Source of the DNA: Caldilineae bacterium
GTDB lineage: Bacteria; Chloroflexota; Anaerolineae; DUEN01
Length of the DNA: 64,000 bases
Direction of reading: 5' to 3'
Assembly: GCA_011176545.1 (NCBI GenBank)
Contig: DUEN01000009.1
Coordinates: forward strand, 9,510 to 73,509
This document shows, piece by piece, positions 173-26,512 of the stretch. The position numbers were made by a program, and so were the translations under genes. The notes beneath the pieces were generated by a model. It worked only from the letters and a program-made list of their open reading frames with translations, did not search any database and had not been told where the DNA came from. The first letter of the stretch is position 1. Each line of letters starts with the position of its first letter.

Positions 173-3100
173 GTGAGCGCATCTATGACGCGTGAATTCC
201 ATGTGATCGTCTCAACCCTTCCGGGATTCCTGGAACCCTCGCCTGCCATCGCGGCCTGTCGAGCCGGCGAATGGGGGATCCTGAACCTGGAATACGTGGA
301 AGACGATGAAAGCGCTTTGCAGGCTGCGGCGACTCTGGCCCATTACGCTAGGGGAAAGTATGGCCTCACGCTGAGCTGTCATCAAGAGGCCTTGTTGTCT
401 AGGCTCCTCGGCGAAAGCCCCGCCCGCCCTGATATGATCCTGCTGACAGGCCACGATACCCACCTGCTGCGGCAGGCGATCGAGGCGATCCATCAAAAGG
501 GCCTGCGCGTGCTCTTGGAGGTTACCGACCTGGAGCACGCTCGCCTGGGAGAGGAACTGGGTGTCGAAGGCATCGTCGCCAAGGGGTATGAGGCCGGTGG
601 CCTGGTCGGCCGGGAGACCGCCTTCGTCCTGTTGCAACACCTGTTGAACCACATCTCCCTCCCCATCTATGTACAGGGGGGGATCGGGCTGCACACGGCG
701 GCCGCCTGTTACGTCGCGGGGGCCGCGGGTGTGCTCCTGGACGCCCAACTCGCTCTGACGCGTGAATCTCGGCTGCCCGACGCGGTACGAGAGCGCATCG
801 CGGCCATGGATGGCAGCGAGACGATATGCCTCGGTAACGACCTTGGGGAGGCTTACCGGGTTTACTTCAAGCCAGGGTTGAAGGCTGTCGATGAGTTACG
901 CCGCATCGAGGAGGAACTCATCGACGCCGATCTTCCTGCCGCGGAGAAGGTGGCCGCCTGGCGGTCAGCCGTCGAAGGACGCATCGGATGGGCGGCCCCG
1001 GGGCGGCATGTGTGGCCCCTGGGACAGGATGCCGCCTTCGCCGCATCGCTGGCGCGTCGCTTCGTCACCGTATCAGGTGTCCTCAGCGCGATCCGCGAGA
1101 CCATCGAGGCCCATTGTGAGGCTGCGGCGCGGCTCCGTCCCCTTGATGAGGGTTCCCCTCTCGCTCAATCGCATGGGACCCGATATCCCATCGTGCAGGG
1201 GCCGATGACCCGGGTGAGCGACAATGCCCCGTTTGCCCTGGAGGTCGCCAGAGCGGGCGGGCTGCCCTTCCTCGCCCTCGCCCTGATGAACGGAGAGGAC
1301 GCTCTGCTGCTGCTGGAGGAGACCCGACGAACGTTAGGCCAATATCCCTGGGGCGTGGGCATCCTGGGCTTCGTCCCGCCGCAGGTGCGTCAGGAGCAAT
1401 TCGAGGCCATCCGAGCGACCCGGCCCGCCTTCGCGCTGATCGCCGGGGGGCGTCCGGACCAGGCGCGCGAGTTGGAGCAGGAGGGGATCCCTACCTATCT
1501 GCATGTGCCTTCCCCCGAGCTGCTGCGGATGTTTCTGGCCGATGGCGCCACACGGTTCGTCTTCGAAGGCCGCGAATGCGGCGGCCATGTCGGCCCTCGC
1601 TCCAGCTTCGTCCTGTGGGAGATGCTGGTCGATGTGCTGCTGGCGCATCTCTCCTCAACCAATGTCGATGCCCAGAAGTTCCACGTGTTGTTCGCTGGGG
1701 GCATCCATGACGCTCTCTCCTCCTCTATGGTGGCGGCGTTAGCTGCTCCTCTGGCTGAACGAGGGGTTCGCGTGGGCGTACTGATGGGGACCGCCTACCT
1801 CTTCACGCGAGAGGTCGTATCCACCGGCGCGATCACACCTCGGTATCAGCAGGAGGCCCTGCGCGGCACGACGACGGTGGAGCTTGAGACTGGTCTGGGG
1901 CATGTCACGCGCTGCCTTCCCACGCCATACGTGCAAACCTTCATCGAGCGGAAGCGGAGCCTGTTGCGGGAGAACATCCCCGGCGATCGCCTGCGCCAGG
2001 AGCTGGAGGCCCTGAACCTGGGGCGGTTGCGCATCGCGGCCAAGGGGATCGCACGCCATCCGAGTGATCCGGGAGATCCGAAGACGCCCAGATACGTCTC
2101 CCTGGACGAGGACGAGCAGTATCGTCAGGGGATGTACATGATCGGCCAGGTGGCCGCGCTGCGAGATCGCGTCTGCACCATCGAAGAGCTCCATCGAGAT
2201 GTTTCGGTGAAAGGCACAGAGCGGTTGACGGCTCTGGTGGCTAGGCAATACGCAGAGCGCTCTCTGGAAGCCGCTGAGCCGGCCTCCCCGCGGCCCTCCC
2301 GCATCGCCATCATCGGCATGGCCTGCATTTTGCCGGGCGCGACCAACTTGCAAGCCTATTGGGAGAACATCCTGAACAAGGTGGACGCTATCACGGAGAT
2401 TCCTCCCGATCGCTTCGATTGGAGGCGCTATTTCGATCCGGATCGCCACGCGCGCGATAAGATCTACTCCCGATGGGGTGGCTTCATCGATGAGATCCCG
2501 TTCAACCCCCTCGATTATGGCATGCCCCCCAGCTCGATCCCCTCGATCGAACCAGCGCAGCTGTTGATGTTGGAGGTGGTTCGGGCAGCGCTGGCGGACG
2601 CCGGTTACCTGGAACGCCCCTTCCCGCGCGAGCGCACCGGCGTCATCGTCGCCGCGGGCGGCGGCCTGGGCGATCTGGGCTTCCTTTATTGTTTCCGTTC
2701 CTTCCTCCCCCACTTCCTGGACTCATCAAGGGAGGTCATCGAGCGGCTCAAGGAGATGTTACCCGAGTGGACCGAGGATTCCTTCCCTGGGATCCTGCTC
2801 AATGTGCTGGCCGGCCGCATCGCCAACCGCTTTGATCTGGGCGGCCCGAATTATGTAGTCGATGCGGCTTGTGGTTCTTCCCTGGCCGCCGTGGATGCCG
2901 CGGTGAAGGACTTGGAGACCCACCGCGTCGATATGGCTATCGTCGGCGCGGCCGATACCGTCCAGAGCCCGTTCGCCTTCCTGGCCTTCAGCAAAACCCA
3001 GGCTTTGTCACCCAGCGGGCGTAGTCGCCCCTTTGATGCGAACGCCGACGGCATCGCTATCAGCGAGGGGATCGCCGTCGTCATCCTCAAGCGGTTAGAG

Positions 3101-6100
3101 GATGCGGAGCGGGATGGCGATCGCATCTATGCCGTGATCCAGGGGATCGGAGCCTCCAGCGATGGTAGGGATCGAGGGTTAACCGCGCCGCGCCCTGCGG
3201 GACAGCTCCGGGCGTTGCGGCGTGCCTATACCAAGGCGGGTATCTCCCCCGCCACCGTCGGCCTCGTCGAGGCGCATGGGACGGGCACCCGGGTAGGGGA
3301 CGTGGTCGAGGTCGAGGCGCTGAATGCCCTGTTCCAGGAAGCTCAGTCCTTCCCTCGCAGTTGCGCCATCGGCTCCGTGAAGTCGATGATCGGCCACACG
3401 AAGAGCACCGCGGGGCTAGCCGGGTTGATCAAGACGGCCCTGGCGCTATATCACAAGATACTTCCCCCGACGCTGGTGGACGAGGTGAATCCCGATCTCT
3501 GCCACGAGGGTAGCCCCTTCTACGTGAACACCGCGCCGCGGCCTTGGCTGGTCGCTGGCGATGAGGTCCCACGGCGGGCCGGTGTCAGCGCCTTCGGCTT
3601 CGGCGGCACCAACTTCCACGCCGTGTTGGAGGAATACAGGGACGCCTACGGGTCCGAACTGGCCTGTCTCCAAACCTGGCCGGCCGAGCTGTTCATCCTG
3701 AGCGCCTCGGATCAGGAGGCGTTGCAGGCGGAGGTGGATCGCCTGATCGCCTGGCTGGCCGAGGGGAATGAGCCTCCCCTGCGAGACTTGGCGTACACGC
3801 TGTACACCCGATATCGCCAGATGTCCGACGCCGAGGGTGATGAAGGAGAATGGTGGACGGCGGCCGTTGTTGCGACGTCTCTGGCGGATCTACAGGAGAA
3901 GCTGGCCCAGCTCCAGGAGAGGATGCGCGCTGGTGAGGCGCAAGTCTGGGATGCGCGAGGCATCTATTTCTCACGGGAGCCGCTGGGCCGAGGGGGCAAA
4001 CGGGCCTTCCTGTTCCCCGGGCAGGGATCTCAATATCTCAACATGTTGCGCGATCTGGTCATGCAGTTCCCGCGGACGCGTGAGGCGTTTGAGGAGGCCA
4101 ATAGGGCGCTGGCGGGCCAATTCCCCAAACCCCTCAGCGATTACATCTTCCCGCCTCCCGCCTGCCGCCGCGACGAGTTGGAGGCTCAGCAGCAGGCCCT
4201 CACGGACACGCGCGTGGCCCAGCCCGCGTTGGGCGCGGCCGACCTGGCCGTCGCCGACCTGCTGCGGGAGATGGGGGTCTGCCCGGACTTCGTGGCTGGC
4301 CATAGCTACGGGGAGATCGTGGCGCTGTGTTGGGCCGGCGTGTTCGATCGCTATGATCTGTTCGCTATCTCCGAGGCTCGCGGGCGCTTCATGGCCGAGG
4401 CGACGGGGCTGGATTCCGGTGCTATGGCGGCCGTGTGGGCCGGCCGAGACGAGGTGGCCACGGCCATGGGCGGGATCGAAGGGGTGACCCTGGCCAATAT
4501 GAACTCGCCCAGACAGACGGTGATCTCCGGCGCCACGTCCGCCGTGGAGGAGGCGATGCGCCGCTTGGAGGCCCTGGGCATCCGGGCACGACGGTTGCCC
4601 GTCGCCTGCGCCTTCCACTCGCCATTGGTGGAACCAGCCCGGGATCGGCTGGCCCGATTCCTGCGCTCTGTGACCTTCCACGCGCCCCGTATCGCCGTCT
4701 TTTCAAACACCCTCGGCGATCTTTACCCCAATGAGCCGGAACACATACGCGAGATCCTGTCCCAACATCTGGCCCGTCCTGTGGAATTTCAGCAGGAGAT
4801 CGAGGCCATGTATGAGATGGGGGCCCGCGTCTTTATCGAGGCAGGCCCACGCGATATCCTGAGCGGGCTAGTGCGCCAGATCCTGGAGGGCCGGCCGCAT
4901 TTGGCCGTGGCCATCGATACCCGGGGGCCGGGATTGCTGTCGCTGCAGAAGGCGTTAGGGCAACTGATCGCCGCCGGGATCGACGTGCGTCTGGATCCCC
5001 TCTTCGAGGGTCGACGGGTGGCGCGACTGGACCTCGCCCGCCCATACGAGTCCCCGGAGCGGGCTCGCTATGGGCCTACCACCTGGCTTGTCAACGGCGG
5101 CCGCGCCCGTCCGTGGCGTGATGGCGAAGGAGGCGAATCGAGGCCAGCCGTGCAGCCATTGCAGGTCCGGCTTGTCGGCGAGGCTCCATCCTCATCCGAT
5201 CAGCCCGCGGCGCGACGGGAGGCGACGGAGACTTCTCCGGCCCAGGGCGACGTGCCCGCGGAAGGCCCGATTCCCGTCAACCCAGCTTCATCGACCTCAG
5301 CCCCGTCGGAGGTGGCCCCTGCTGATGGCGGCCAGACCGCATCGGTCGATGACGAAGTGGCCGGCGTGATGCTGCAGTATCAGCAACTGATGGGGCGCTT
5401 CCTGGAGATGCAGCAGAACATCATGTTGACGTATCTGGGAGATGCCTCGGCGGAAGGGGCGGGTTCGGCTCCTCCGATCCCCGATATCTCCGAGCGGCCG
5501 CCGGAGCTCGCGTCGGAAGGACCATCGCCCAAGCCCTCTTCGGCGCCGGAGAAGCAAGTGAAGGCGGCGTCGGAGCCCGAAGAGAGCAAGGGAACCGGGG
5601 CTCCCACGGCATCAGCGTTGGACGAGCCCTCGCTGGCGGAGATGCTCCTGACGTTGGTCAGCGAACGTACGGGCTATCCCAAGGAGATGCTGGACCTGGA
5701 CGCGAACCTGGAGGCAGACCTGGGCATCGACTCGATCAAGCGGGTGGAGATCCTGGGGGCGTTGCGCCAGCGCCATAGCGCCCTGGAGGAGCGGATCACC
5801 GGGCCTGTCATGGAGCGGCTTCAGGCGCAGCAGACCCTGCGCGGGATCATCGAAGCGGTCATGGCCGAGGCGCTATCGGCGTCCAAAGGAGCGACGGCTC
5901 AAAGTCAGCGCGCTCCGGGGAATGATCATAGCCTGGAGAACTCGGAGCGGCCCATAACGGCCTCCGCGGAGGGGGCAGCGCCCATCTCACGCTATATCTT
6001 AAGACCAGTGGAGGTGCCTCCAGCGGAGGCCGAGGCCGCGTTGGCGCCGGATCGTGTGATCCTGATCACCGACGATGGGAGAGGGATCGCTGGGGAGGTC

Positions 6101-7612: not shown

Positions 7613-7621
7613 GAGGTGGGC

Positions 7622-10600
7622 ATGACGGTCAAGGGTAAAGGCGACGTCGCCATCATCGGGATGGCCTGCATGTTCCCAGGGGCTCCCGATCTGCAGACGT
7701 ATTGGCATAACATCTTGCATAAGGTCGACGCGGTGACGGATCCGCCCCCGGAAGCTTGGGATTCGGACGTGTTCTATGATCCCGCCTCCGATGCCCCGGA
7801 CAGGGTCTATTGCAAGCGGGGAGGCTATTTGGGGCCTCTGGCGAAGTTCAACCCCCTGGACTATGGGATCATGCCGGCCGGCCTGGACGGCGGTGAGCCG
7901 GATCAATGGCTGGCGTTGAAGGTCGCCCACGACGCCCTGGCCGACGCTGGCTATCTGGAGCGGTTGAGGGAGCATCCGGAGGAGCGCCATCGCACCGCCG
8001 TGATCCTGGGAAAGGGGACTTACCTGAACCGGGGCAACCTCAACATGGTCCAGCATAGCCTGATAGTTGAGCAGACCCTACAGATCTTGCAGACGTTGCA
8101 CCCCGAATATAGCCGGGAGGATCTGGAGCGGATCCGGGACGAGCTGCGGCGGGGCCTTCCGCCTTTCAACGCCGAGACCGCGCCAGGATTGGTCCCCAAT
8201 ATCACCGCCGGCCGTATCGCCAACCGCCTGGATCTCATGGGGCCTTCGTATACGGTGGATGCGGCCTGCGCGTCCTCGCTCATCGCCGTGGAGATCGCCA
8301 TGCGGGAGTTGCTCACGGGGAGGTGTGACCTGGCTTTGGTCGGCGGCGCTCAGGTCACCACGCCGATTCCGATCCTGAGCCTGTTCTGCCAGCTCGGCGC
8401 GCTCTCCCGCCGTCAGGAGATCCGCCCCTTCGATAAGAACGCGGACGGCACGATCCTGGGCGAAGGCATCGGGATCATTGTGCTGAAACGCCGCGAGGAT
8501 GCGGAGCGCGATGGCGATCGCATCTATGCCTTCATCAAGGGGGTAGGGACTGCCAGCGATGGCCGAGGCATGAGTGTACTTACCCCGCGCGTCGAGGGCG
8601 AGGTCCTGGCGTTACGTCGGGCTTATGAGGACGCTGGGGTCCCACCGGATACCATCGAGCTGATCGAGGCCCATGGGACGGGCACGCCAGTGGGAGATCA
8701 GGCGGAGATCCAGGCATTGCGAGAGGTCTTCGGCGAGCGGGATGGGCATCCCCCGCGTTGCGCGCTGGGCTCGGTGAAGTCGATGATCGGGCACACGATG
8801 CCGGCCGCGGGGATCGCCGGGATCATCAAGGTGGCCCTGGCCTTATATTACAAAGTCCTGCCGCCCACGATCCACTGCGATGAGCCTCATCCCAAGTTGG
8901 AGTTGGAGAAGACGGTCTTCTATATCAATCGGGAGGCCCGTCCCTGGATCCACGGTGTTCAGGATATACCCCGGCGGGCTGGGGTGAACGCCTTCGGCTT
9001 CGGCGGCATCAACGCCCACGTGGTCATGGAGGAGGCCCCGGAGGCGATCTTGCCCGGCCCCATGCGTCGCTGGGAAAGCGAGGTCGTGATCCTGGCGGCT
9101 GGCTCGCGGCCAGAGCTGATCGAGAGGGCGCGCTCGGTGAGCGCGTACGTTGAGGCCGTGTCGGATGTGTCTCTCCTGGATCTGGCGTATACCCTCAACT
9201 CCCAGATCAACGGTCAACCCTTCCGGCTGGCGGTGGTCGCCGAGTCCCCTGAGGACCTGCTCCAGAAGCTCGCCCGGGCCATCGCCCGTCTGGAGAGGCC
9301 TCAGACCCGCCAGATCAAGGAGGTGAGCGGGATCTACTTCTTCGAGGAGCCGCTTTATCCGGAGGGCAAGCTCGCCTTCCTCTTCCCCGGCGAAGGATCC
9401 CAATATCCCAACATGTTAGCCGACCTGTGCCTGCATTTTCCGGAGGTACGCGCCTGCTTCGATCGAATTGACCGCCTCTTTGCCGATCACCCGCGCGGTT
9501 ATCGGCCCAGCGATTTCATCTTCCCTCGCTCCGTGGGCCCTGGGGAGGAAGATCTAAGCCGGCATTTGTGGGAGATCGACGGTGCGATTGAGGCCGTGCT
9601 CACCGCGAACTCGGCCTTGTTCACTCTGCTCAGCGAACTGGGGTTGCGAGCGGACGCCATGGTCGGCCATAGCACCGGGGAATACTCGGCCATGCTGGCG
9701 GCCGGGGCCATCCCAGTGAACGAGGATGAGTTCGTCGGCCGCTATCTGGCCACCCTCAACCGTATGTATGAGGAGGTCACCGCGGAGGCCCATATCCCTC
9801 AGGCGATGATGATCGCCGTGGGCGCGGGGCTGGATCGGGTCCTGCCCATCATCGAACAGGTCGAGGGCGAGATCTACGTGGGCATGGATAACTGTCCCCA
9901 TCAGTCGGTGATCGTGGGGGAGAGAGCCGCCGTGGAGTCCGCCATGGCGATCATGAAGGATCAGGGCTTGATCTATGAGGCGCTGCCGTTTGAGCGGGCC
10001 TATCATACGCCGCTGTTTGCCCCTTACATGCAGCTCTTCCGGGACTTTTACGATCAATTGCCCCTGGCCGTGCCCAAAGTACGGCTTTACTCGTGCGTGA
10101 CCGCCGCGGCCGTCGATGGCGATGTGGCCGAGATCCGCAGGCTGGCCGTAGAGACCTGGGCTCATCGAGTGCGCTTCCGGGAGACCATCCAGGCCATGTA
10201 TGAGGATGGCATTCGCATCTTCGTGGAGGTGGGTGCCCGCGGCAATCTGACCGCCTTCGTAGGGGATATCCTGCGCGGCAAACCCCACTTGGCGATCCCG
10301 GCCAACCTTCAGCAGCGTTCCGGCATCACGCAGCTTAACCACTTGATCGCCCAGCTTAGCGCGCAGGGCGTGCCCATGGAGTTCGATCCCCTTTACCGTC
10401 GGCGCGCCCCCCGGCGACTGGAGTTAAGCGCGGCCGAGATCGCCGAAGCCCGAAAGAAATCCATTGGCGTGATGAAGCTGGCCACCGGTTGGGCCAGTAT
10501 GAGCCTCTCACCGGAGGTGGCCGCTGACGTTCGCCGCCACGTTGCCCCGTCCTCACCCCGAGAGCGCGAGGAAGGCCCCTCACAGCCTGAAGTATACGGG

Positions 10601-13180: not shown

Positions 13181-13427
13181 CCTGCTGGCGCAACTGGCCA
13201 GCGACTGGGAATACGATGGGGAGATCACCGAGGAGACCTACCTGTTCGCCGATCTGGGGTTTCAATCCCTGGATGCCGTCGTGCTGGGGAATTCCCTGCA
13301 GGAGCGGTTCGGCAAGCCAATCCCCTATGCCGACCTGCTGGCCGAGATCGGTCAGCGCGAGGTTCAGGATGTCACCATCGGTGAGTGGGTGGAGTTTACC
13401 TATAGACATCTACAGGATGGAGATTAG
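13143..13427 (+). CDS. Discrete acyl carrier protein
   Basis: ORF 13119-13427. ATG 13143 is preceded by AAAGGAG. FADLGFQSLDAVVLGNSL is a carrier-protein Ser motif. Overlaps the PKS2 3' end by 38 nt in another frame. Confidence 0.7.
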   Translation: MKTRHEVMQEVLSLLAQLASDWEYDGEITEETYLFADLGFQSLDAVVLGNSLQERFGKPIPYADLLAEIGQREVQDVTIGEWVEFTYRHLQDGD

Positions 13428-13449
13428 GGATTAGAGATTGGAGATGAGG

Positions 13450-15060: not shown

Positions 15061-15087
15061 CTTCATTGAGCGGCTTGGAGGTGTTCT

Positions 15088-16796: not shown

Positions 16797-16815
16797 GCGG
16801 AGGCGGATCGAGAAG

Positions 16816-18743: not shown

Positions 18744-20842
18744 AGGCTGCATCGCGGTCAGTGACAGCGTTGGCGGAGCAACTCCCCGGGCGGCTACGGT
18801 TTCATCCGATCAGCCAGCCGGGGTTCGGCGATCGGCATAACAGTTGGGCCTGGGCTATGTGCTGGTGGAAGGGACATCTCTATGTCGGCACGAATCGGGC
18901 CTTCCTCTGCGCCGAGCGGGCATCCATTCGCGCAGCGCTCCCCTGGCTCTCGCGCTTCCCTTTCGTGCGGTATCCGCCTGAGGACCCGGATGCAGAATGC
19001 GCTTCGGATTACACCGATCTGCCGTTGGAGGCGGAGATCTGGCGTTGGTCGCCCGATGACGGGCGTTGGGAGCGCGTGTTCCGGTCGCCTCGGGACGTCC
19101 CCATCCCGGGACATCCGGGTAAATACGTCGCCCGAGATATTGGGTTTCGGGACATGATCGCCTTCTCCGAACCGGATGGTATGGAGGCGCTATACGTCTC
19201 CGGCGTGAACAGCCGTTTCATTTACAGTAAGTACGGCAGGGTGCCGCCGCCGAGATTGTTGCGGACGACGGATGGCCTGCACTTCGAGGCGGTCCCCCAA
19301 GATCCCGGCACGTTCTTCGGCGATCTGGATCGCTCCACCCTACGCACCCTGGCGGTCTACAAGGGGCGACTGTTCGTGGTCGCCGGTGCTGTCCAGGGCG
19401 ATGGGGTCCTGTTGGAATCGGATCAGCCCGCCCTGGGTAATGATGCCTTCCGCCAGGTCAGCCCGGAAGGGATGCGGGTCTTCGAGATGGTCGTTTACAA
19501 CGGCTACCTGTATCTGGGTCTGCGCGATCCCCAACGCGGATATGCTGTGGTGAAGACGGACGCGGAGGGGACGCCCCCTTACACCTTTACGCCCGTGGTG
19601 ACCGATGGGGCTTATCTCCCCCGACCCAGCCTGAGCGTGATCAGCATGTATGTCTTCCGAGACAGATTATACGTGGGTACGGACCGGCCGGCGGAGCTGA
19701 TCCGTATCCATCCGGATGATAGCTGGGACCTGGTCATCGGTACGCCGCGGCAAACCCCGACGGGATGGAAGGAGCCGATCAGCGGCCTGGACGCCGGCTT
19801 CTACAACTGGCTCAATGGACATCTGTGGCGGATGGTCGAATACGAGGGGCGGCTTTACATTGGGACCATGAACATGAGCACCCACCTGCGCACCATCCCA
19901 GAGGCTGAGCGCGTGCTGGCGCCTAATTATGGGTTCGACTTGTTTGAAAGCGAGGATGGGGTCCACTTCACGCCGATCACCTTCAACGGCTTCGGGGACA
20001 TGTTCAACTTCGGGGCACGCACCTTCGCGGCCACGCCGCATGGGCTCTTCCTGGGCACCGCGAATAGCTGGTATGGGTTGCAGATCTGGCGAGGCGTATC
20101 CGCAGCTCGGCGATTTGAGGATGCATCCGAGGGGCATGGCGAGGAAGCCAGTGGGGATGAGACAGTGGGGTGGTTCCCAGCCCGGCTTCAGGCCGAACGC
20201 GTGGATAGGAAAGTCATCCTCTCCTGGGAGCCAGCAGCGCGCGCCCGCCGATATCGGATCTGGCGGGCGCGGGTATCGGACGAGCGACGCGCTGTCGAGC
20301 AGAATCCCTTCTTGCGGCGGCTGCTCAAGATCGCCCGCGCCGTATTGCCCACCTTACAGAACGTCTACCTGCCCCCACTGCCAGAGAAGTTGTGGATCCC
20401 GGGCGCGTATGAGGAGGTGGGGAGCACCGACCAGACCATCTTCGTCGATCCATCGGGCGGGGAAGGGGTCTTCCTCTACTACATCCAGGCGGAGGGCGCG
20501 GATGGAAAGGCATTGGGCTGTTCCAATCTGGTGGCCGTCCCCTCCCTGGCGCCCAGGGCCACCTTCGATCGGCTGATGAAGGCGTTCGATGAGCGAATGC
20601 ATGGGCAGGATCTCGAGGAAGACGCCCTCCGTGATGCGATCGAGCGGGCTCGCGCCGCCGCCCTGGCGGGGGACGTGTCGGAGGCGGATCGCATACTGGG
20701 GGAGATCATGCAGGGGTTGACGGAGGGACGTTTCGGGGTGGGCGATCCTATCGCCCTGGAGGATATCGCGTTGCTGGTCTCGCGTTTGCGACGTCGATTG
20801 AGCCTGATTGAGAGTGGATGGATCTCCCTGGAGGCGCTGTGA
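18740..20842 (+). CDS. Repeat (probably beta-propeller) protein, paralogue 1; no obvious signal peptide; Fn3-like plus helical C-terminal module
   Basis: ATGA overlap at 18740-18743. GFGDRHNSWAWAMCWWKGHLYVGTN, then recurring G-x-L-[YF]-[VIL]-G motifs: GRLFVVAG, GYLYLGLRD, DRLYVGTD, GRLYIGTMN, HGLFLGTAN. Confidence 0.6.
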   Translation: MKAASRSVTALAEQLPGRLRFHPISQPGFGDRHNSWAWAMCWWKGHLYVGTNRAFLCAERASIRAALPWLSRFPFVRYPPEDPDAECASDYTDLPLEAEIWRWSPDDGRWERVFRSPRDVPIPGHPGKYVARDIGFRDMIAFSEPDGMEALYVSGVNSRFIYSKYGRVPPPRLLRTTDGLHFEAVPQDPGTFFGDLDRSTLRTLAVYKGRLFVVAGAVQGDGVLLESDQPALGNDAFRQVSPEGMRVFEMVVYNGYLYLGLRDPQRGYAVVKTDAEGTPPYTFTPVVTDGAYLPRPSLSVISMYVFRDRLYVGTDRPAELIRIHPDDSWDLVIGTPRQTPTGWKEPISGLDAGFYNWLNGHLWRMVEYEGRLYIGTMNMSTHLRTIPEAERVLAPNYGFDLFESEDGVHFTPITFNGFGDMFNFGARTFAATPHGLFLGTANSWYGLQIWRGVSAARRFEDASEGHGEEASGDETVGWFPARLQAERVDRKVILSWEPAARARRYRIWRARVSDERRAVEQNPFLRRLLKIARAVLPTLQNVYLPPLPEKLWIPGAYEEVGSTDQTIFVDPSGGEGVFLYYIQAEGADGKALGCSNLVAVPSLAPRATFDRLMKAFDERMHGQDLEEDALRDAIERARAAALAGDVSEADRILGEIMQGLTEGRFGVGDPIALEDIALLVSRLRRRLSLIESGWISLEAL

Positions 20843-20849
20843 GGGCATC

Positions 20850-22133
20850 ATGGCTCGCTTCCTGATCACCGTGTGGCCCCTATCCGGCCATGTGTACCCT
20901 AACCTGGCCCTGGCGACCGCCTTGCGTGATCGCGGGCATACCGTCGCCTTCTATACCGGGGCCCGGGCCCGCGCCGCGATCGAGCGAGAGGGGTTCACCT
21001 ATCTGCCCTTTAAGGCGCTGGATGGGGAGATCCTCGAGGAGATCATGGCTCCTGGCTATCTCAGCGCTCCGACCCCCTGGCATCGGGTTCGCCGGCAGAA
21101 GGCCATCTATCGTGAATGGCTGGTAGGCACGCTCCCGGGCCAGCTGGTCGATCTGGAGGAGATACTGCGAACGTGGCAGCCTGATGCGATCATCTGCGAC
21201 CCGACCATGTGGGGGCCGATCCTCGTGCTGCACGAGGCGTTTCAGGCGCCCGTGGCCGTCTTCTCCTACACGGTGGGATGTCTCTTGCCTGGGCGTGATG
21301 TGCCGCCACCCGGTCCCGGGTTACCGCCCCCGCGAAACGCGAGGGATCGTCTGCGCGCTGCCGCTTATGGAATCGCTCAGCACTTGGCTACCGCGGATAT
21401 CCGGCGGGCCGCCAACGAGATACGACGACGCTACGGGCTCCCCCCTTTGCGTGTCACGGTCACCGAGCACGCGGGGACGATGCCTTTGTACCTGGTGACG
21501 AGCGTCCCGGAGCTTGATTATAACCGGGATGACCTGCCGCCGAACGTGCACTATGTCGGCCCATGCCTATGGTCCAGGCCGGCCTCGGAGCCCCCAACCT
21601 GGATGGACGAACTTCCCTCAGATCAGCCCTGGGTACACGTCACCGAGGGGACGCTTCATAACCAGCGCCCTCTGCTCCTGTGGGCGGCCGCGCAGGGCCT
21701 GGCCGATCTGCCCGTACAGGTGATCATGGCGACGGGTACCCATCGCCGGCCGGAGGATCTAGGACTGGGGCCGCTGGCGCCCAATATCCACGTCAAAGCG
21801 TGGGTGTCCTATCCGCATCTGCTGCCACGGACCGCCGTGGTGGTGACCGCCGGAGGCGCAGGCACGGTGTTGGCGACGTTGCAGGCGGGCGTGCCGATGG
21901 TCGTCGTGCCTACGGAGTGGGATAAGCCGGAGAACGCTCAGCGAGTGGTGGAGAGCGGGGCCGGGTTACGGCTGAACCCCAAACGTTGCACGCCGACGCG
22001 GTTACGCTCCGCCGTCGAACGGATCCTGCGAGATCCGTCGTTTCGGGAGAACGCTCAGCGGTTAGCCCGGCGGTTCACCCAATATGGGGGGCCGCGACGA
22101 GCCGCGCAATTGTTGGAAGAGATGGTGATATGA
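20850..22133 (+). CDS. GT1-family (MGT/UDP-glycosyltransferase-like) glycosyltransferase
   Basis: MARFLITVWPLSGHVYPNLALATALRDRGHTVAFYTG. C-terminal VVTAGGAGTVLATLQAGVPMVVVP nucleotide-sugar motif. Confidence 0.8.
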   Translation: MARFLITVWPLSGHVYPNLALATALRDRGHTVAFYTGARARAAIEREGFTYLPFKALDGEILEEIMAPGYLSAPTPWHRVRRQKAIYREWLVGTLPGQLVDLEEILRTWQPDAIICDPTMWGPILVLHEAFQAPVAVFSYTVGCLLPGRDVPPPGPGLPPPRNARDRLRAAAYGIAQHLATADIRRAANEIRRRYGLPPLRVTVTEHAGTMPLYLVTSVPELDYNRDDLPPNVHYVGPCLWSRPASEPPTWMDELPSDQPWVHVTEGTLHNQRPLLLWAAAQGLADLPVQVIMATGTHRRPEDLGLGPLAPNIHVKAWVSYPHLLPRTAVVVTAGGAGTVLATLQAGVPMVVVPTEWDKPENAQRVVESGAGLRLNPKRCTPTRLRSAVERILRDPSFRENAQRLARRFTQYGGPRRAAQLLEEMVI

Positions 22134-24301
22134 AACGTGTATCCTGGATTGTTCAGGTAAGCCTCATCTTATGGCTACTGGTCGGAGGGCTTAGTCCCTA
22201 CGGGACAGCCTGGGCTGAAGAGCCTCCCGACCAGGAGGAGTTCGTCCTGGCCGCGCCCCAGGGCTTCGGGGATCGCCACAACAGCTGGGCGTGGTCCATG
22301 CAGTGGTGGAATGGCCATCTCTATGTGGGGACCAATCGGGCCTTCCGCTGCGCGGAGTTCGCCTCGTTGAACCATATCGCCCCCAGCCTCTTTCCGTACC
22401 CGCCGGAGGACCCGGATATCGAGTGCACTCCCGATCCGACGGATCTGCCGTTGCAGGCTGAGATTTGGCGTTGGACTCCCGAGACGGATAGCTGGGAGAG
22501 GGTCTACCAGGCGCCCGCGGATGTGCAACTGCCCAACGGGAAGTGGGTAGCGCGGGATATCGGCTATCGGGGCATGACGGTCTTCCGCGAGCCGGATGGC
22601 ACCGAGGCGCTCTATGTGACCGGCGTCAGCCCTCAGTTCCTCGGCTTTGAAGGAGTGGAGGATCTGCCCGCCCGTATACTGCGATCGACCGATGGCGTGC
22701 ATTTCGAGCCGATCCCGCAGGATCCGGGGACGGCATTGGGGAATTTCCCCTTCGCCGCGTTCCGTAACCCCACCGGTTACAAGGGGAAGTTCTACGTCGT
22801 GGGAGGGATGGTACAGGGCAGCGGCGTGTTGCTGGAATCCGAGACTCCCGCCGAGGGCAATGATAGCTTCCGGGTCGTGAGCCCCTCCGATATGATCGTC
22901 TCCGCCGTGGCCGTCTACAACGGCTATCTGTACCTCGGGCTGCGTGATCTCCTCAGGGGCTACGCGGTCGCCAAGACGGACGCCTCCGGCGAGCCCCCGT
23001 ACACCTTCACCATCATTGTCGATCAGGGCGGTAACCTGGACCTCTGGCGGAATCCCGAGGTGCTGAGCATGCAGGTCTTCGACGGCCGCCTGTACGTTGG
23101 GGGGAACGGGCTCATCATCGGCCCGCTGGGCATCATGGGGCCAGCGGAGCTGATCCGTATCAACCCCGATGACTCATGGGATCTCATCGTCGGCTATCCG
23201 AGGCGCACGCCCGATGGATGGAAGTTCCCATTGAGCGGGCTGACCGCGGGCTTCGGGAACTTCCTCAACGGGCATATGTGGCGCATGGAAGTCTACGAAG
23301 GAGAGCTTTACGTGGGCACCTTCGACAGCAGTACGACCTTCAAGGATGACCCGGATGTGGCGCCCCTCGTTCAGTCGCTGATGGGCTTTGACCTTTACCG
23401 CACCGCCAACGGCGTCGATTTCATGCCCGTGAGCACGACCGGCTTCGGGGACCCGTTCAACTTCGGCGTCCGGACGATGGCGGCGACCCCGCATGGCCTG
23501 TTCATCGGCACGGCTAATCCCTACTATGGGCTGCAGATCTGGCTCAAGAGGCGTTACGGGATGTTCCTCCCCCTGCTGGTGACGTCCCCTGCCCCTTCGT
23601 TACGCTCCTACGCCCCACCTCAGGAGGAAACGGCTTGCAAGGTAGCATCAGGCGATCGAAGGGGAGCCAGCCTGTATGGTGAGCCCATTGGCGGGGCGGT
23701 CGTCCTCTCATGGCGTCCCTTGCGCGGTGCGGCGGCCTATCGCATCTGGCGATCCCAGGCTGGCCTAGCGACCTTTGCCCCGGAAGGCCCACGTGTCCAG
23801 GATGAGGATATGCTTACACTGGAAGTCCTCAAGGGGCAGCGGCCGTCTTTCACGGATATCGGGCAGACGTCAGGTTGCTATTATGTGGATCAGGGGGTAC
23901 ACTTATCTCAGAGATCGTACCTCTACCTGGTCGAAGGCATCGATGCCATGGGGCGGTCGGTCGGGTGGTCTCACTTGACGGCTGTCCCTGGCGCTGCTCC
24001 CTCAGTGACCTTTTCCTCGCTGATCATGAAAGCCACCGAGGCGCACGCCAAGGGATATCTATCCTCAGCGGGATTCGAAGAGCTCAGGCAGAGGCTAGAG
24101 GAGATCCGATGGCTGCTAAGGAATGCCCACGACGCAGCCGCTCGACAGCGACTAGCAGCCCTTCGGGAACGCCTCTCACAGCCTGGGGGGATCTTCCCGG
24201 CCTCATGGATGTCTGAGGATTTCCTCTATCTTGTGGACAAGTTAGAGAGGCGGGTGGATTTGATGGAGAAGGGGTTTATAGAGCCGATGGATCTGGAGTG
24301 A
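22130..24301 (+). CDS. Repeat (probably beta-propeller) protein, paralogue 2; signal peptide; Fn3-like plus helical C-terminal module
   Basis: ATGA overlap at 22130-22133. MKRVSWIVQVSLILWLLVGG signal, GFGDRHNSWAWSMQWWNGHLYVGTN, same repeat series as paralogue 1. Confidence 0.6.
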   Translation: MKRVSWIVQVSLILWLLVGGLSPYGTAWAEEPPDQEEFVLAAPQGFGDRHNSWAWSMQWWNGHLYVGTNRAFRCAEFASLNHIAPSLFPYPPEDPDIECTPDPTDLPLQAEIWRWTPETDSWERVYQAPADVQLPNGKWVARDIGYRGMTVFREPDGTEALYVTGVSPQFLGFEGVEDLPARILRSTDGVHFEPIPQDPGTALGNFPFAAFRNPTGYKGKFYVVGGMVQGSGVLLESETPAEGNDSFRVVSPSDMIVSAVAVYNGYLYLGLRDLLRGYAVAKTDASGEPPYTFTIIVDQGGNLDLWRNPEVLSMQVFDGRLYVGGNGLIIGPLGIMGPAELIRINPDDSWDLIVGYPRRTPDGWKFPLSGLTAGFGNFLNGHMWRMEVYEGELYVGTFDSSTTFKDDPDVAPLVQSLMGFDLYRTANGVDFMPVSTTGFGDPFNFGVRTMAATPHGLFIGTANPYYGLQIWLKRRYGMFLPLLVTSPAPSLRSYAPPQEETACKVASGDRRGASLYGEPIGGAVVLSWRPLRGAAAYRIWRSQAGLATFAPEGPRVQDEDMLTLEVLKGQRPSFTDIGQTSGCYYVDQGVHLSQRSYLYLVEGIDAMGRSVGWSHLTAVPGAAPSVTFSSLIMKATEAHAKGYLSSAGFEELRQRLEEIRWLLRNAHDAAARQRLAALRERLSQPGGIFPASWMSEDFLYLVDKLERRVDLMEKGFIEPMDLE

Positions 24302-24381
24302 CGGCTTTCGTTCCAAGACGCTTGGCTTTATGAGCAGGGTCGTTTTCTTTCGCCGCTCCCGTCTAGTGCAGAAGGAGGTTC

Positions 24382-26388
24382 ATGATGGAGAGCCGTGGTA
24401 TACACATAGGGGCACGTTATCGTAGGCTGGCTCCGATTGCTTTGGTCCTGATGATCGGCCTGCTGACTGCTTTGGCGGTACCCGGGCAGGCCTCGAGCCC
24501 GCAGGCGACGCCGATCCCGCTCACACAGGATGAGTTCTCCTCTATCGCGCCCCAGGGGTTCGGAGATCGTCACAATAGCTGGGCATGGTCGATGCAGTGG
24601 TGGAACGGTTACCTGTACGTAGGCACCAACCGGGCGTGGCATTGCGCCGAGGTCGCTGCCCTGACGAACATCTTCCCTGGGCTGGTGACATATCCACCGG
24701 ACGATCCGGACGTGGAATGTACCCCGGATCCTGAAGATCTCCCCTTACAGGCGGAGATCTGGCGCTGGTCGCCGGCGACTGGATGGGAGCGAGTGTATCA
24801 GGCGCCCGCGGATGTTCCGCTACAAAGCGGCAAGATGGTGGCCAGAGACGTCGGCTACCGGGGTATGACGGTCTTCCGCGAGCCGGATGGCACCGAGGCG
24901 CTTTACGTCACCGCCGTCAGCCCTCAGTTCATCTTCGAGGAGCTGACCGATGTGCCAGCCCGCATCCTGCGGTCAACCGATGGAGTGCACTTCGAGCCGA
25001 TCCCACAAGATCCGGGCACAGCTCTGGGGAACTTCCCCTTCAGCGTCTTCCGCAATCCTACCAGCTACAACGGACGGTTTTACGTCACGGGAGGCACGGT
25101 CCAGGGAAGTGGCGTGTTGCTGGAATCCGACGATCCGGCCGCGGGCAACGATAGCTTCCGCATCGTCTCGCCTCCAGGCATGATCGTCTCCGCGCTGAAG
25201 CCCTACAATGGGTACCTCTACGTGGGCGTGCGGGGGCTCTGGCGTGGCTACTCCATCGTTAAGACGGACGCCAGCGGAGATCCTCCCTATACCTTCACGC
25301 TGGTGGTGGAGAAGGGCGGATATCTCCGGCATGGTCGGAACCCCGAGGTGCTGAGCATGGAGATCTTCGACGGCTACCTGTACGTGGGTGGCAACGGTAT
25401 CTCCGTCGGCTCGATCGGCCCCGGCGCCGCTGCCGAGCTGATCCGCATCCATCCTGATGATTCCTGGGATCTCATCGTCGGCTATCCACGACTGACCCCT
25501 GATGGGTACAAATATCCGCTCAGCGGCCTGGAGGCTGGCTTCGGGAACCCGTTTAACGCCCATATGTGGCGAATGGCGGTGTATGATGGCGTGCTGTACG
25601 TGGGGACCTTTGACACCAGCACCACGCTCCGCAACGATCCTCAGCTCGGCGGATACGCGCAGCGATTCGCGGGGTTTGACCTGTATGCTTCTACGGACGG
25701 CATGCACTTCACGCCGGTGACCATGGACGGGTTTGGGGATGAGTTTAACTTCGGCGTACGAACCATGGCCTCCACGTCTGAGGGGCTATTCATAGGTACG
25801 GCTAATTACTACTATGGCCTGCAAATCTGGCGCGGCCAGAGCGGAGCTCCCCCAGCGTCAACCGAGACTCCAACCCCGACGCAGACCCCTGTCGCGGGAG
25901 AGGTCGCTGGGTGGGTCTTCCTTGACCTGAATGGGGATGGCCGTCGCGATCCGTATGCCGGGGAGACGACCGGTATCCCTGGTGTGACCCTGATCCTCCG
26001 TGATGCGGAGGGGAACGCCTTCACCACGCGAAGCACAAATCCCTCCGGGTGGTACGCATTCTCCAACGTGCCGCCCGGCATGTATACCGTGGAGGAGCAA
26101 CAGCCGCCTGGATACGTCAGCACCAGCCCGGATGTCGTCGCCATCGAGGTGCTTGCCGGAGGACAGCATATCGTGAACTTCGGCGAGATGCTCACCACCT
26201 CCACACCGACGGCGACGCCGCGCGATACGCCTACCGCGACGCCAACGCTGACACCAACGGCGACGCCAAGCAACACGCCCACCGCGACGCCGTCACCGAC
26301 GCCGACGGATACGCCCACACTTACCCCCACTGCCGGGCCCGTGGGAGAGGTCGGCTATGTGGTATACCTGCCGCTGCTGGCGAAGTGA
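24382..26388 (+). CDS. Repeat (probably beta-propeller) protein, paralogue 3; signal peptide; C-terminal SdrD-B/Cna-B-like domain, Thr/Pro-rich tail, terminal YLPLLAK
   Basis: GAAGGAGG RBS before ATG 24382. GFGDRHNSWAWSMQWWNGYLYVGTN. GWVFLDLNGDGRRDP...GWYAFSNVPPGMYTVEE. TPTATP repeats. Confidence 0.65.
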   Translation: MMESRGIHIGARYRRLAPIALVLMIGLLTALAVPGQASSPQATPIPLTQDEFSSIAPQGFGDRHNSWAWSMQWWNGYLYVGTNRAWHCAEVAALTNIFPGLVTYPPDDPDVECTPDPEDLPLQAEIWRWSPATGWERVYQAPADVPLQSGKMVARDVGYRGMTVFREPDGTEALYVTAVSPQFIFEELTDVPARILRSTDGVHFEPIPQDPGTALGNFPFSVFRNPTSYNGRFYVTGGTVQGSGVLLESDDPAAGNDSFRIVSPPGMIVSALKPYNGYLYVGVRGLWRGYSIVKTDASGDPPYTFTLVVEKGGYLRHGRNPEVLSMEIFDGYLYVGGNGISVGSIGPGAAAELIRIHPDDSWDLIVGYPRLTPDGYKYPLSGLEAGFGNPFNAHMWRMAVYDGVLYVGTFDTSTTLRNDPQLGGYAQRFAGFDLYASTDGMHFTPVTMDGFGDEFNFGVRTMASTSEGLFIGTANYYYGLQIWRGQSGAPPASTETPTPTQTPVAGEVAGWVFLDLNGDGRRDPYAGETTGIPGVTLILRDAEGNAFTTRSTNPSGWYAFSNVPPGMYTVEEQQPPGYVSTSPDVVAIEVLAGGQHIVNFGEMLTTSTPTATPRDTPTATPTLTPTATPSNTPTATPSPTPTDTPTLTPTAGPVGEVGYVVYLPLLAK

Positions 26389-26441
26389 TGGCATGCGTGG
26401 TCCTGCATCGCCCGGTGTCCTCATATACCAGAGGCGCCTCA

Positions 26442-26487
26442 GGGCAAGGTGCCGCCCGGGGATCAGGCAGCACCTTGCCCTTGTTTT
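26442..26487 (+). terminator. Intrinsic terminator ending the PKS/propeller operon
   Basis: 11-bp perfect stem GGGCAAGGTGC / GCACCTTGCCC (26442-26452 and 26470-26480) followed by TTGTTTT. Confidence 0.7.
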
Positions 26488-26512
26488 CCAACATCGTTAA
26501 CGAGGAATGCGT

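Follow-up and report, generated by a model that had tools for sequence, protein, structure and literature searches.

Near the start of the window, the 64,000-nucleotide stretch of a Caldilineae bacterium contig analysed here (DUEN01000009.1, positions 9,510 to 73,509), a run of closely spaced genes opens with two large polyketide synthase (PKS)-type proteins, raising the question of what their products make together. Judged from sequence families and gene neighbourhood, the cluster most likely makes and exports a long-chain, sugar-bearing lipid. As the sequence-only reading had reported, the window contains 12 ORFs between 173 and 26388, all on the + strand:

173-7612, +: PKS1, 2479 aa, ER (FabK/NMO-type)-KS-AT-ACP-KR, 'fused PfaD-PfaA' type (Pfam and NCBIfam)
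7622-13180, +: PKS2, 1852 aa from the ATG at 7622, KS-AT-ACP-DH (PS-DH)-PPTase (Sfp type, WxxKEAxxK)
13143-13427, +: discrete ACP, 94 aa from the ATG at 13143 (95-102 aa in the domain annotation), PF00550, serine in GFQSLD
13444-15060, +: cytoplasmic NPP-type phosphodiesterase of the alkaline-phosphatase (AP) superfamily, PF01663
15088-15939, +: alpha/beta hydrolase (ABH), candidate for chain release, GHSLG nucleophile
15936-16796, +: SDR1, classical, closest to 17beta-HSD and KdsR
16816-17853, +: SAM methyltransferase (MT), closest to MppJ and 2-ketoarginine C-methyltransferases
17850-18743, +: SDR2, classical, by sequence families
18740-20842, +: UnkA, beta-propeller, FN3-like domain and helical bundle, a paralogue without signal peptide
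20850-22133, +: GT1 natural-product-type glycosyltransferase, closest to MGT, CalG and OleD
22130-24301, +: UnkB, secreted, beta-propeller (~38-475), FN3-like sandwich (516-620) and C-terminal helical bundle (pLDDT 89)
24382-26388, +: UnkC, secreted or anchored, beta-propeller paralogue with an SdrD_B/prealbumin-like domain and a Thr/Pro-rich tail

The ATGA start/stop overlaps read earlier at 15936, 17850, 18740 and 22130 are all exact, and the two short gaps described with them were recovered, one of 9 nt between the PKS1 stop (7612) and the PKS2 ATG (7622) and one of 7 nt between the UnkA stop (20842) and the GT ATG (20850). The ACP start codon at 13143 is immediately preceded by GGAG and the gene overlaps the end of PKS2 by 38 nt, while spacers of 16, 27, 19 and 80 nt separate ACP from NPP, NPP from ABH, SDR1 from MT (ATG 16816) and UnkB from UnkC, respectively. 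These ORFs and junctions support reading the locus as a biosynthetic cluster whose genes are co-directional and translationally coupled. The gene arrangement is far beyond chance, as the same order recurs in independently fetched loci (numbered with L below). The order PKS1-PKS2-ACP-NPP-ABH spans nine or more phyla or orders, among them Anaerolineae, Dehalococcoidia, Desulfobacterales, Thermoanaerobaculia, Gammaproteobacteria, Solirubrobacteraceae, Burkholderiales, Myxococcota and, minus NPP, Gemmataceae, as well as on metagenome contigs. In many phyla the synthase pair is followed by the ACP-NPP-ABH(-SDR) module with its gene order unchanged, usually together with SDRs, GT1 and members of the 700-aa beta-propeller family, and ACP-NPP-ABH is kept in Bryobacteraceae L039, which has a stand-alone KS in the PKS2 position. 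Directly upstream of NPP in the relatives stands the ACP gene; in several of them the two genes overlap by stop and start, in others they lie within 12-30 nt of each other, and ABH directly follows NPP in all NPP-containing relatives that were inspected. Full-length PKS2 relatives are present in many phyla, and across genomes the KS1 tree is congruent with the KS2 tree.

HMM annotation confirmed the domain set listed earlier for the two synthases (NMO-like, ER, KS, AT, ACP, KR; KS, AT, ACP, DH, PPTase) and the free ACP. The ER of PKS1 consists of two tandem FabK/NMO-type TIM barrels (residues ~1-300 and 330-623) with PDB matches to FabK; though FabK/NMO-like, it gave no match to the NCBIfam PfaD family model at E <= 1e-3. 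It is followed by a KS (709-1101; triad C900/H1035/H1075), an AT (1279-1569; GHSYG), a single ACP (Ser 1851 within LGIDSIK; motif LGIDSIKRVEILG) and a KR (2190-2414). PKS2 comprises a KS (10-421; triad C218/H353/H392), an AT (588-887), a single ACP (1129-1194), a PS-DH (1420-1554) and an in-cis Sfp-type PPTase (1617-1792; WCAKEAAGK). The iterative PKS pair proposed earlier has a PfaA-like core, PKS1 passing the NCBIfam PfaA subfamily model (1124 bits, cutoff 1010) and PKS2 likewise having PfaA as its best NCBIfam model. Neither synthase is complete alone, as the domain search found no DH in PKS1 and no KR or ER in PKS2, where just ~80 residues between the ACP and the DH region leave no KR. Together, their domains make up one complete iterative FAS/PKS cycle with two KS, both with the active-site triad. 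The absence of a chain-length-factor (CLF) KS was thus borne out, as were those of a tandem-ACP array and a FabA-type DH in the domain search of both proteins.

A polyunsaturated or polyene chain, as made by Pfa PUFA synthases or PKSE-like enzymes, would be in keeping with the PfaA-like KS-AT and ACP sequences, with the motif LGIDSIKR(V/T)EILG, which we take to be that of PUFA-type ACPs, and with the PKSE-like order KS-AT-ACP-...-DH-PPTase of PKS2. It is nevertheless improbable, as a FabA-type DH/isomerase, a CLF and tandem ACPs are all absent here, PKS1 carries a fused ER, PKS2 lacks a KR, no enediyne cassette genes were found in the cluster and the best PDB sequence matches include neither DynE8 nor CalE8. 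A second alternative is an Ars-type very-long-chain fatty acid synthase, whose saturated C20+ chain would enter a bulk membrane or storage lipid and leave the tailoring genes unrelated. PKS1 and PKS2 presumably resemble ArsA and ArsD of Azotobacter in domain order, and the full KR, DH and ER set, the one ACP per protein and the PPTase in the second protein agree with such an enzyme; single-ACP ars-type clusters are classed among the secondary lipid synthases by Shulse & Allen, and a WS/DGAT gene lies close to the cluster in L039. A type III PKS partner is missing, however, and ACP-NPP-ABH-SDR, usually with GT1, MT and propellers, stay with the synthases across phyla, joined by start/stop overlaps, which points to one pathway and makes the Ars-type explanation unlikely.

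The earlier conclusion that the pair is no canonical Pfa synthase, Hgl synthase or enediyne PKSE stands, whereas its layout, then thought to be unmatched, has been described before. PMC13291983 describes an uncharacterised type of secondary-lipid synthase in which a fused pfaD-pfaA stands with a pfaBC-like gene that has a PPTase domain but no CLF. This corresponds to Type M of Shulse & Allen (fused pfaDA plus pfaBC with PPTase), exemplified by Renibacterium and S. avermitilis SAV_7361, with uncharacterised product (PMC3098273). The same arrangement is carried by SAV_7361/SACE_2343 (PMC6042109). Loci of Streptomyces, Amycolatopsis and Kutzneria share the two-gene architecture and ABH, and mostly GT1, with the MT confirmed only in S. 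filipinensis. No product has been reported for any member of this cluster kind, and every step past 'iterative FAS/PKS' is therefore drawn from homology and neighbourhood.

No protein of the cluster is more conserved than NPP, which has more than 2800 homologues (55-75% identity among the 120 best listed), a complete catalytic set of invariant residues (D13, T52, D214/D217/H221, D276-H277 and H435) and an AF2 model (pLDDT 89) whose fold matches NPP/PhnA. To our knowledge, PKS or FAS chemistry offers no earlier example of such an enzyme. The claim that no thioesterase domain is present held, ABH reaching PF00975 only below threshold (E 2.4e-4; 21.8 bits, cutoff 26.4). The MT, fused to an SDR in L043 and L044, had been called O-methyltransferase-like; it is nearer to C-methyltransferases acting beside a keto group (MppJ, 2-ketoarginine MT). 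With this correction, ABH, two SDRs, MT and GT1 fit the reduced, methylated, glycosylated long-chain lipid envisaged earlier. No thioester reductase was found in the cluster, so that only mid-chain or beta-hydroxyls are accounted for as the origin of the glycosylatable hydroxyl.

The cluster does not end at 26487. The hairpin previously taken as its terminator (26442-26487) is real and its intergenic stretch folds at -52 kcal/mol (z = -3.2), but the boundary placed there is not, since ten further + strand genes follow (26513-39585) and homologues of the AP-superfamily, SnoaL_2, PD40, MFS_2, PGAP1-like and secreted unassigned proteins lie within the clusters of other genomes:

26441-26490, +: strong hairpin (26441-26481) with U-rich tail, ~25 nt ahead of the next gene
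26513-27847, +: second AP-superfamily protein, Pfam Sulfatase, without CxPxR, Thr-type motif PTFPSFTT; in-cluster homologues in L019, L032 and L043
27817-28236, +: SnoaL_2-like small protein, conserved in L001, L019 and L043
28237-29202, +: g14, RmlD-type NDP-sugar reductase/epimerase by sequence family, putative deoxysugar supply
29183-30538, +: DUF362 protein, twin-arginine signal, C terminus AYLPAVLR; homologue in L019
30535-31818, +: PD40/Tricorn_N-type beta-propeller, membrane-anchored or secreted; homologues in L001, L003, L008, L019, L043 and L044
31809-33308, +: MFS_2 transporter, candidate lipid/glycolipid flippase; MFS_2 in-cluster in L039, L040 and L043
33292-35169, +: g18, PGAP1-like alpha/beta hydrolase (AHSKGG), secreted or anchored; homologues upstream of PKS1 in L003 and L019
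35136-36470, +: secreted protein without family assignment; in-cluster homologues in L043 and L044
36716-39585, +: HlyD-family membrane-fusion protein and MacB/FtsX-type permease (DevB/DevC-like export pair)

The genes from 26513 to 36470 mostly overlap one another. The hairpin is a terminator or attenuator dividing two putative sub-operons, and together with the 245-nt gap at 36470-36716 within the gene run it allows for separate transcription units. Epimerase-family, NTP-transferase and dTDP-sugar-isomerase genes occur in-cluster in L001, L037, L040, L042 and L044, and tblastn found no direct g14 orthologue in the relatives' loci. In L011, HlyD and two MacB-like genes follow the cluster; here no ATPase gene adjoins the permease, and the membership of the pair is therefore tentative.

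Of the 'three unknown repeat proteins' of the sequence-only reading, the number stands, and they are now identified as paralogous beta-propeller, FN3-like and helical-bundle proteins. Their 700-aa family matches no Pfam model, and every member with inspected context lies inside such a cluster. The lipid might instead be bound covalently to these secreted propellers as a GPI-like or lipoprotein-like anchor processed by the AP-superfamily and PGAP1-like enzymes, given that one to three paralogues per cluster are conserved along with the synthase and that a C-terminal YLPLL(R/K)-type motif (YLPLLAK at the end of the UnkC tail) is common to several secreted cluster proteins. Pointing the same way, NPP with its PF01663 fold and g18 with its PGAP1-like domain fall in the families of the GPI ethanolamine-phosphate transferases and the GPI inositol deacylase of eukaryotes. 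With support that is circumstantial throughout, no transamidase-like or Lgt/Lnt-like gene, no signal peptide on UnkA and the motif missing from UnkA and UnkB, such an anchor is very improbable.

The preferred explanation, that PKS1 and PKS2 supply an iteratively built long chain for subsequent tailoring, glycosylation and export, and that 173-26388 is the biosynthetic half of a ~36-39 kb co-directional secondary-lipid gene cluster, is given a probability of roughly 0.6. The two synthases would act as one complex, with carrier domains primed by the PPTase domain of PKS2, and iteratively condense malonyl units into a long, mostly saturated chain, of a length and saturation not readable from sequence. 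As in heterocyst-glycolipid and Ars-type synthases, skipped reductions would leave a few keto or hydroxy positions in the chain. The chain would be handed to, or released via, the discrete ACP and ABH, with NPP possibly working on a phosphodiester or pyrophosphate bond at this step; the SDR-MT-SDR trio would tune keto and hydroxy groups and probably C-methylate beside a carbonyl. GT1 would then attach a sugar, and the RmlD-type gene makes a 6-deoxyhexose probable. MFS_2, perhaps with the HlyD/MacB-type pair, may carry the amphiphile outward, where the propeller paralogues, PD40 protein, PGAP1-like hydrolase and other secreted proteins would handle it at the cell envelope. In its long chain, its tailoring and glycosylation and its export to the envelope, the proposed product would resemble heterocyst glycolipids.

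The head group may alternatively be phosphate- or sulfate-based rather than sugar alone, installed, transferred or trimmed by the two AP-superfamily enzymes (13444-15060 and 26513-27847). Both are conserved, NPP most of all and with its catalytic residues kept, the second is weakly similar to phosphoethanolamine transferases, and among the relatives L039 encodes ATP-sulfurylase/APS-kinase and TauE and L040 and L044 sulfotransferases. Kinase, sulfotransferase and PAPS genes are absent from the window, however, both enzymes lack a signal peptide and TM segments, and hydrolases are no obvious head-group donors; such a head is unlikely. The accessory genes are found again in many phyla of uncultured bacteria, and in some relatives sulfotransferase or PAPS-synthesis genes stand beside or replace the glycosyltransferase, suggesting that this family may produce long-chain alcohols or hydroxy lipids whose polar heads can be exchanged.

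The feature, which the sequence-only reading had described as an operon of 12 genes at 173-26487, is real, conserved and larger than first reported. The ORF listing agrees with 12 ORFs on the + strand from 173 to 26388, and reading of every junction located the ATGA overlaps at exactly the proposed positions (15936, 17850, 18740 and 22130), as well as the PKS1 stop (7612) and PKS2 ATG (7622), separated by 9 nt, and the UnkA stop (20842) and GT1 ATG (20850). The discrete ACP most likely starts at ATG 13143, judging from the GGAG upstream, and would thus overlap the end of PKS2, MT starts at ATG 16816, and no gap within the 12 genes is wider than the 80 nt between 24301 and 24382. The hairpin claimed at 26442-26487 is confirmed, with a stem of 12 bp, rich in G+C, at 26441-26481 and a U-rich tail behind it. 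Scanning the whole window for Rfam families and tRNAs returned no match, and no riboswitch leader was therefore detected 5' of PKS1. The promoter scan gave fewer matches than were found in shuffled sequence, the window begins 172 nt 5' of PKS1, which limits the view of the upstream edge, and the G+C content is ~63% throughout.

Genes of the first run, in order
173-7612, +, PKS1, ER-KS-AT-ACP-KR synthase
7622-13180, +, PKS2, KS-AT-ACP-DH-PPTase synthase
13143-13427, +, ACP, discrete carrier protein (most likely start)
13444-15060, +, NPP, NPP-type phosphodiesterase
15088-15939, +, ABH, alpha/beta hydrolase
SDR1, +, classical SDR
16816-17853, +, MT, closest to the C-methyltransferases MppJ and 2-ketoarginine MT
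SDR2, +, classical SDR
UnkA, +, ending at 20842, paralogue of UnkB without family assignment
20850-22133, +, GT1, natural-product-type glycosyltransferase
UnkB, +, without family assignment; UnkA and UnkC are 47-56% identical to it
UnkC, +, ending at 26388, paralogue of UnkB without family assignment

Domains were called by Pfam and NCBIfam scans, plus PDB sequence searches, and the scans agree with the domain set first proposed for PKS1, PKS2 and the free ACP. PKS1 (2479 aa) comprises two tandem FabK/NMO-type TIM barrels at residues 1-623, a KS, an AT, a single ACP and a KR with its structural subdomain, while its ER gave no match to the PfaD family model. PKS2 comprises a KS, an AT, a single ACP, a PS-DH (PKS-type) dehydratase and an Sfp-type PPTase (ACPS match). 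The motif LGIDSIKR(V/T)EILG, which we take to be a hallmark of PUFA-synthase ACPs, is present in the ACP domains of both proteins, and tandem ACPs were not found in PKS1, which has one PP-binding match and one LGIDSIK motif. The Cys-His-His triad is intact in both KS domains (Cys218 in the KS of PKS2), so that neither is a chain-length factor (CLF), a candidate role that was considered for both and rejected on this ground. The domain scans detected no KR in PKS2, where the spacer between the ACP (ending at residue 1194) and the DH (from ~1272) is a short low-complexity linker, and no FabA-type DH or TE domain in either synthase, the PS-DH being the sole dehydratase. The absence of a TE, a CLF KS, tandem ACPs and a FabA-type DH pair, noted from the sequence, is thus confirmed by scans and active-site reading. 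Jointly, PKS1 and PKS2 hold exactly one set of activities (KS/AT/ACP twice, KR, DH, ER and PPTase), and each is incomplete without the other. The two KS domains are old paralogues whose trees are congruent among the fetched loci, indicating that PKS1 and PKS2 evolved together.

Apart from a PfaA-type KS-AT...KR sequence in PKS1, the domain sets that define canonical Pfa, Hgl and PKSE systems and the type III PKS genes that mark Ars systems were tested for and not found; for the first three, a mismatch had been proposed from the sequence. The KS-AT and KR of PKS1 exceed the cutoff of the PfaA subfamily model TIGR02813 (1124 bits; cutoff 1010.1), PKS2 scores below it (705 bits) with PfaA still its best model, and the cluster further shares the PUFA-type ACP motif and an NMO-superfamily ER, like PfaD, with PfaABCDE. 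It differs from Pfa in having one ACP rather than 4-6 or more, and no KS-CLF pair, FabA-type DH pair or separate PfaB. PKS2 resembles PKSE (KS-AT-ACP-KR-DH-PPTase) in its order KS-AT-ACP-...-DH-PPTase and in having an in-cis PPTase that would allow self-priming, but lacks a KR and needs a second synthase with an ER. No match to the enediyne cassette (TE, E3/E4/E5 genes) was found among the 22 + strand genes, and a PKSE identity for PKS2 was ruled out by the missing KR, by its best-scoring models being PfaA and by the absence of DynE8/CalE8 from its top PDB matches.

With the Hgl system of the Nostocales (HglE/C/D/B, HglT, DevBCA) the cluster would share a PfaA-like iterative synthase producing a very long hydroxy/keto chain, followed by a glycosyltransferase and perhaps a HlyD/MacB-type exporter leading to an envelope layer. 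DevBCA is the exporter in heterocyst glycolipid deposition. Unlike Hgl, the cluster has no KS-CLF protein (HglC) or thioester-reductase protein (HglB), no NAD_binding_4/TER-type reductase attached to an ACP being found among the genes scanned, and it has a fused ER and an in-cis PPTase; Hgl islands, in turn, have no NPP or propeller proteins. The predicted pathway works by analogy with that of the heterocyst glycolipids, but the cluster itself does not belong to this family; antiSMASH would probably class it as 'hglE-KS'. The ArsA/ArsD pair of Azotobacter vinelandii (Type P; C22-C26 alkylresorcinol chains) likewise belongs to the Pfa lineage of iterative type I FAS/PKS pairs, has a single ACP and a PPTase associated with it, and keeps a long saturated chain on the ACP until hand-over; its domain order, as compared here with PKS1/PKS2, is presumed. 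The ars synthase genes, however, flank two type III PKS genes, whereas the cluster contains none and PKS1 and PKS2 are adjacent, and the downstream chemistry predicted here comprises glycosylation, methylation and an NPP.

The closest published layout is found among the 20 secondary-lipid synthase types of Shulse & Allen 2011 (PMC3098273), where Type M (Frankia, Renibacterium salmoninarum, Actinosynnema and S. avermitilis SAV_7361) and Type P (Azotobacter ars) belong to the branch with PKS-type PPTase motifs. In PKS1 the ER is fused to KS-AT-ACP-KR in the first gene, and PKS2 carries KS-AT-DH with a C-terminal PPTase and no KS-CLF pair in the second, so that the pair resembles Type M (ER-KS-AT-ACP-KR plus KS-AT-DH-PPTase, single ACP, no CLF) by architecture; the types are defined in part by KS phylogeny. 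This layout has been described as 'fused pfaDA + pfaBC with PPTase domain' (PMC13291983). The initial claim that the layout matches nothing published was therefore too strong: the synthase layout is known but orphan (PMC13291983, PMC3098273, PMC6042109), PKSs that end in a PPTase domain (SAV_7361, SACE_2343) have no identified products (Kim et al. 2018, PMC6042109), and no product is known for either Type M or the cluster. The window clade differs from Type M in that its PKS2 also has an ACP domain and in having a discrete ACP, an NPP, a beta-propeller family and a secreted-protein block. In the open-access papers searched no characterised homologue of the cluster was found, and neither the conserved ACP-NPP-hydrolase module nor the propellers nor the block of secreted proteins is described there.

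Relatives were found with PKS2 as probe against one genome per GTDB species, propeller and NPP homologues were located on their contigs, and all window proteins were mapped onto 44 loci from genomes and metagenome contigs. The order PKS1-PKS2-ACP (100 aa)-NPP-ABH is kept in the Anaerolineae, Dehalococcoidia, Desulfobacterales, Thermoanaerobaculia, Gammaproteobacteria, Solirubrobacteraceae, Burkholderiales (Caldimonas, Rubrivivax, Ideonella) and Myxococcota. It is also conserved, minus the NPP, in the Gemmataceae, and locus L039 of the Bryobacteraceae keeps the ACP-NPP-ABH module with a stand-alone KS in the place of PKS2. The ACP stop overlaps the NPP start in several relatives, with gaps of 12-30 nt in others. 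One to three propeller paralogues lie alongside the synthases in most loci of sufficient length, and all four metagenome contexts reached via a propeller protein are clusters of this kind. KS trees of the fetched loci resolve three clades, two with NPP and a third without, the latter comprising Streptomyces, Amycolatopsis, Kutzneria and a few others, and the window falls outside it. These actinomycete loci of Type M architecture share the ABH and mostly a GT1, with an MT confirmed only in S. filipinensis (L029), where the ER-KS-AT-ACP-KR / KS-AT-DH-PPTase pair is followed by hydrolase, GT1 and MT; unlike the window, those examined have no NPP or propellers. Between PKS1 and PKS2 several relatives, though not the window, have an additional stand-alone ORF that is DH-like and 24-28% identical to PKS2 residues ~1272-1552.

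Positions of the extra DH-like ORF in relatives
L003, 8373-9140
L008, 12022-12771
L009, 1913-2677
L011, 12143-12913
L019, 10001-10780

The NPP is the best-conserved protein of the set, with 55-75% identity among the 120 best of more than 2800 homologues, these 120 spanning at least four phyla. Its binuclear-metal and nucleophile residues are all invariant in the homologue alignment, and its predicted structure matches NPP and PhnA folds. Among PLSDB plasmids only distant haloarchaeal homologues (~27% identical) were found.

The three repeat proteins first recorded as unknown are beta-propeller paralogues. No Pfam or NCBIfam match was obtained even at E <= 1, the propeller family being without a Pfam model, and a PDB sequence search was equally negative. 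The AlphaFold2 model of UnkB (80-sequence alignment; mean pLDDT 89) comprises an N-terminal signal peptide, a beta-propeller at ~38-475, an FN3-like sandwich at 516-620 and a C-terminal helical bundle, and Foldseek returned only generic propellers (LGI1 EPTP, designed Kelch-like proteins, sialidases and GH43). An arylsulfate sulfotransferase-like or any other named propeller enzyme was accordingly rejected on the absence of Pfam, NCBIfam and PDB matches and the generic Foldseek result. The signal peptide is present in UnkB and UnkC and absent from UnkA, and UnkC carries an SdrD_B-type domain and a Thr/Pro-rich tail in place of the UnkB-like C-terminal modules. The family has more than 867 members at 90% clustering and 403 clusters at 50% identity with E <= 1e-30, and the named homologues are mostly from Chloroflexota.

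The cluster does not end at 26487, as was first thought. Ten more + strand genes extend to 39585, the first beginning within ~25 nt of the hairpin (ATG 26507 or 26513), and these mostly overlap each other as far as 36470, where a 245-nt gap follows.

Genes past the hairpin, in order
26513-27847, +, second AP-superfamily protein, Pfam 'Sulfatase', without formylglycine motif
Gene 2, +, SnoaL_2 protein
Gene 3, +, RmlD-type sugar reductase
Gene 4, +, TAT-exported DUF362 protein
Gene 5, +, PD40 propeller
Gene 6, +, MFS_2 transporter
Gene 7, +, secreted PGAP1-like hydrolase
Gene 8, +, secreted unknown protein
Gene 9, +, after the 245-nt gap, HlyD-family protein
Gene 10, +, MacB/FtsX-type permease

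A true sulfatase at 26513-27847 was ruled out by the absence of the CxPxR motif. Homologues of the AP-family, SnoaL_2, PD40, MFS_2, PGAP1-like and secreted unknown proteins occur in or beside the clusters of nine relatives (L001, L003, L008, L019, L032, L039, L040, L043 and L044), so that the cluster is larger and 173-26487 covers its first sub-operon only. The HlyD and MacB-type permease genes lie 10 kb downstream without an ATPase, and their association with the synthases is kept only in L011. A GT4-family glycosyltransferase gene (39671-40867, -) converges on the end of the + strand run and likely marks the downstream limit of the cluster. Secreted cluster proteins have in common the motif YLP(L/A)(L/V)(L/Y)(R/K), exactly C-terminal in two (VVYLPLLAK, AYLPAVLR), which in this lineage may act as a signal for sorting or processing.

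Sites of the YLP-type motif
26368-26385, +, C terminus of UnkC
30515-30535, +, C terminus of the DUF362 protein
34324-34347, +, inside the PGAP1-like protein

Elsewhere in the window, a Baseplate_J-like protein (PF04865, E 4e-10) is encoded at 43842-45380 (-), alone between the YceG and alanyl-tRNA synthetase housekeeping genes. The genes at 53162-62104 (+) encode a VWA-domain protein of 1089 aa and, behind it, two large proteins with Tubulin_2 (PF13809) domains (890 aa, E 4e-63; 1013 aa, E 5e-7), an arrangement resembling a bacterial three-gene set of tubulin-like and VWA proteins.

Synteny between the synthases and the tailoring and export genes extends across phyla, and sugar-nucleotide genes are additionally present in some loci (NTP transferase, 4,6-dehydratase or epimerase, dTDP-sugar isomerase). 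Sulfotransferases are encoded beside the ACP-NPP-hydrolase module in L040 (2754-3757) and L044 (8984-9964), and ATP-sulfurylase/APS-kinase and TauE (PAPS synthesis) in L039 (4955-7573), which suggests sulfated versions of the product. In two metagenome relatives (L043, 1-988; L044, 4634-6601) SDR and MT are fused in a ~655-aa protein, which argues that both act at the same substrate position. In L041 (12551-21608) large modular PKS genes that carry full reducing loops come immediately after the PKS1-PKS2-ACP-NPP-hydrolase block, a possible lipid-polyketide hybrid. This variation is consistent with a conserved long-chain scaffold whose polar decorations are interchangeable, and with a coupled redox and methylation step.

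In the proposed pathway, PKS1 and PKS2 would form a self-priming heteromeric iterative FAS/PKS producing a long, largely saturated chain with few keto/hydroxy positions. Off-loading would proceed via the discrete ACP and the hydrolase, with a phosphodiester step catalysed by the NPP, followed by SDR/MT tailoring and then glycosylation by GT1. The lipid may be flipped or exported by MFS_2, perhaps also by the HlyD/MacB pair, and the secreted proteins would handle it outside the cell. The general model is given a probability of about 60%, and any specific product a much lower one. A bolder and distinctly tentative proposal is that clusters combining ACP-NPP-ABH and propellers make chemically undescribed envelope lipids, with long methyl-branched hydroxy/keto chains and interchangeable glycosyl/sulfate heads, in which the NPP might act in off-loading or head-group chemistry and the secreted propellers might handle the lipid, and that these are widespread in uncultured Chloroflexota, Acidobacteriota, Burkholderiales and others.

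Pfa-lineage secondary lipid synthases are common in genomes, and PUFAs, heterocyst glycolipids and alkylresorcinol chains are the few products known; since 2011 none has been assigned to the Type M-like layout. As hglE-KS-type orphan clusters are common, the cluster would not astonish a specialist. A concrete lead that can be tested is the cross-phylum linkage of an orphan kind of secondary-lipid synthase to an NPP and a dedicated propeller family. One branch of the Type M-like layout is locked to these two, and also occurs with export and secreted proteins, and in the window a Chloroflexota-like organism shows it in compact and complete form. This makes testable both the envelope lipid of abundant, mostly uncultured bacteria and the role of a phosphodiesterase in a PKS pathway. 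If the proposals are true, the NPP-type phosphodiesterase would be a new step in PKS/FAS biochemistry and the propellers a new family of secreted lipid-handling proteins, and a long-chain glyco- or sulfolipid, should this be what the cluster makes, could be a so far unrecognised source of the long-chain hydroxy/keto biomarkers in sediments and soils.
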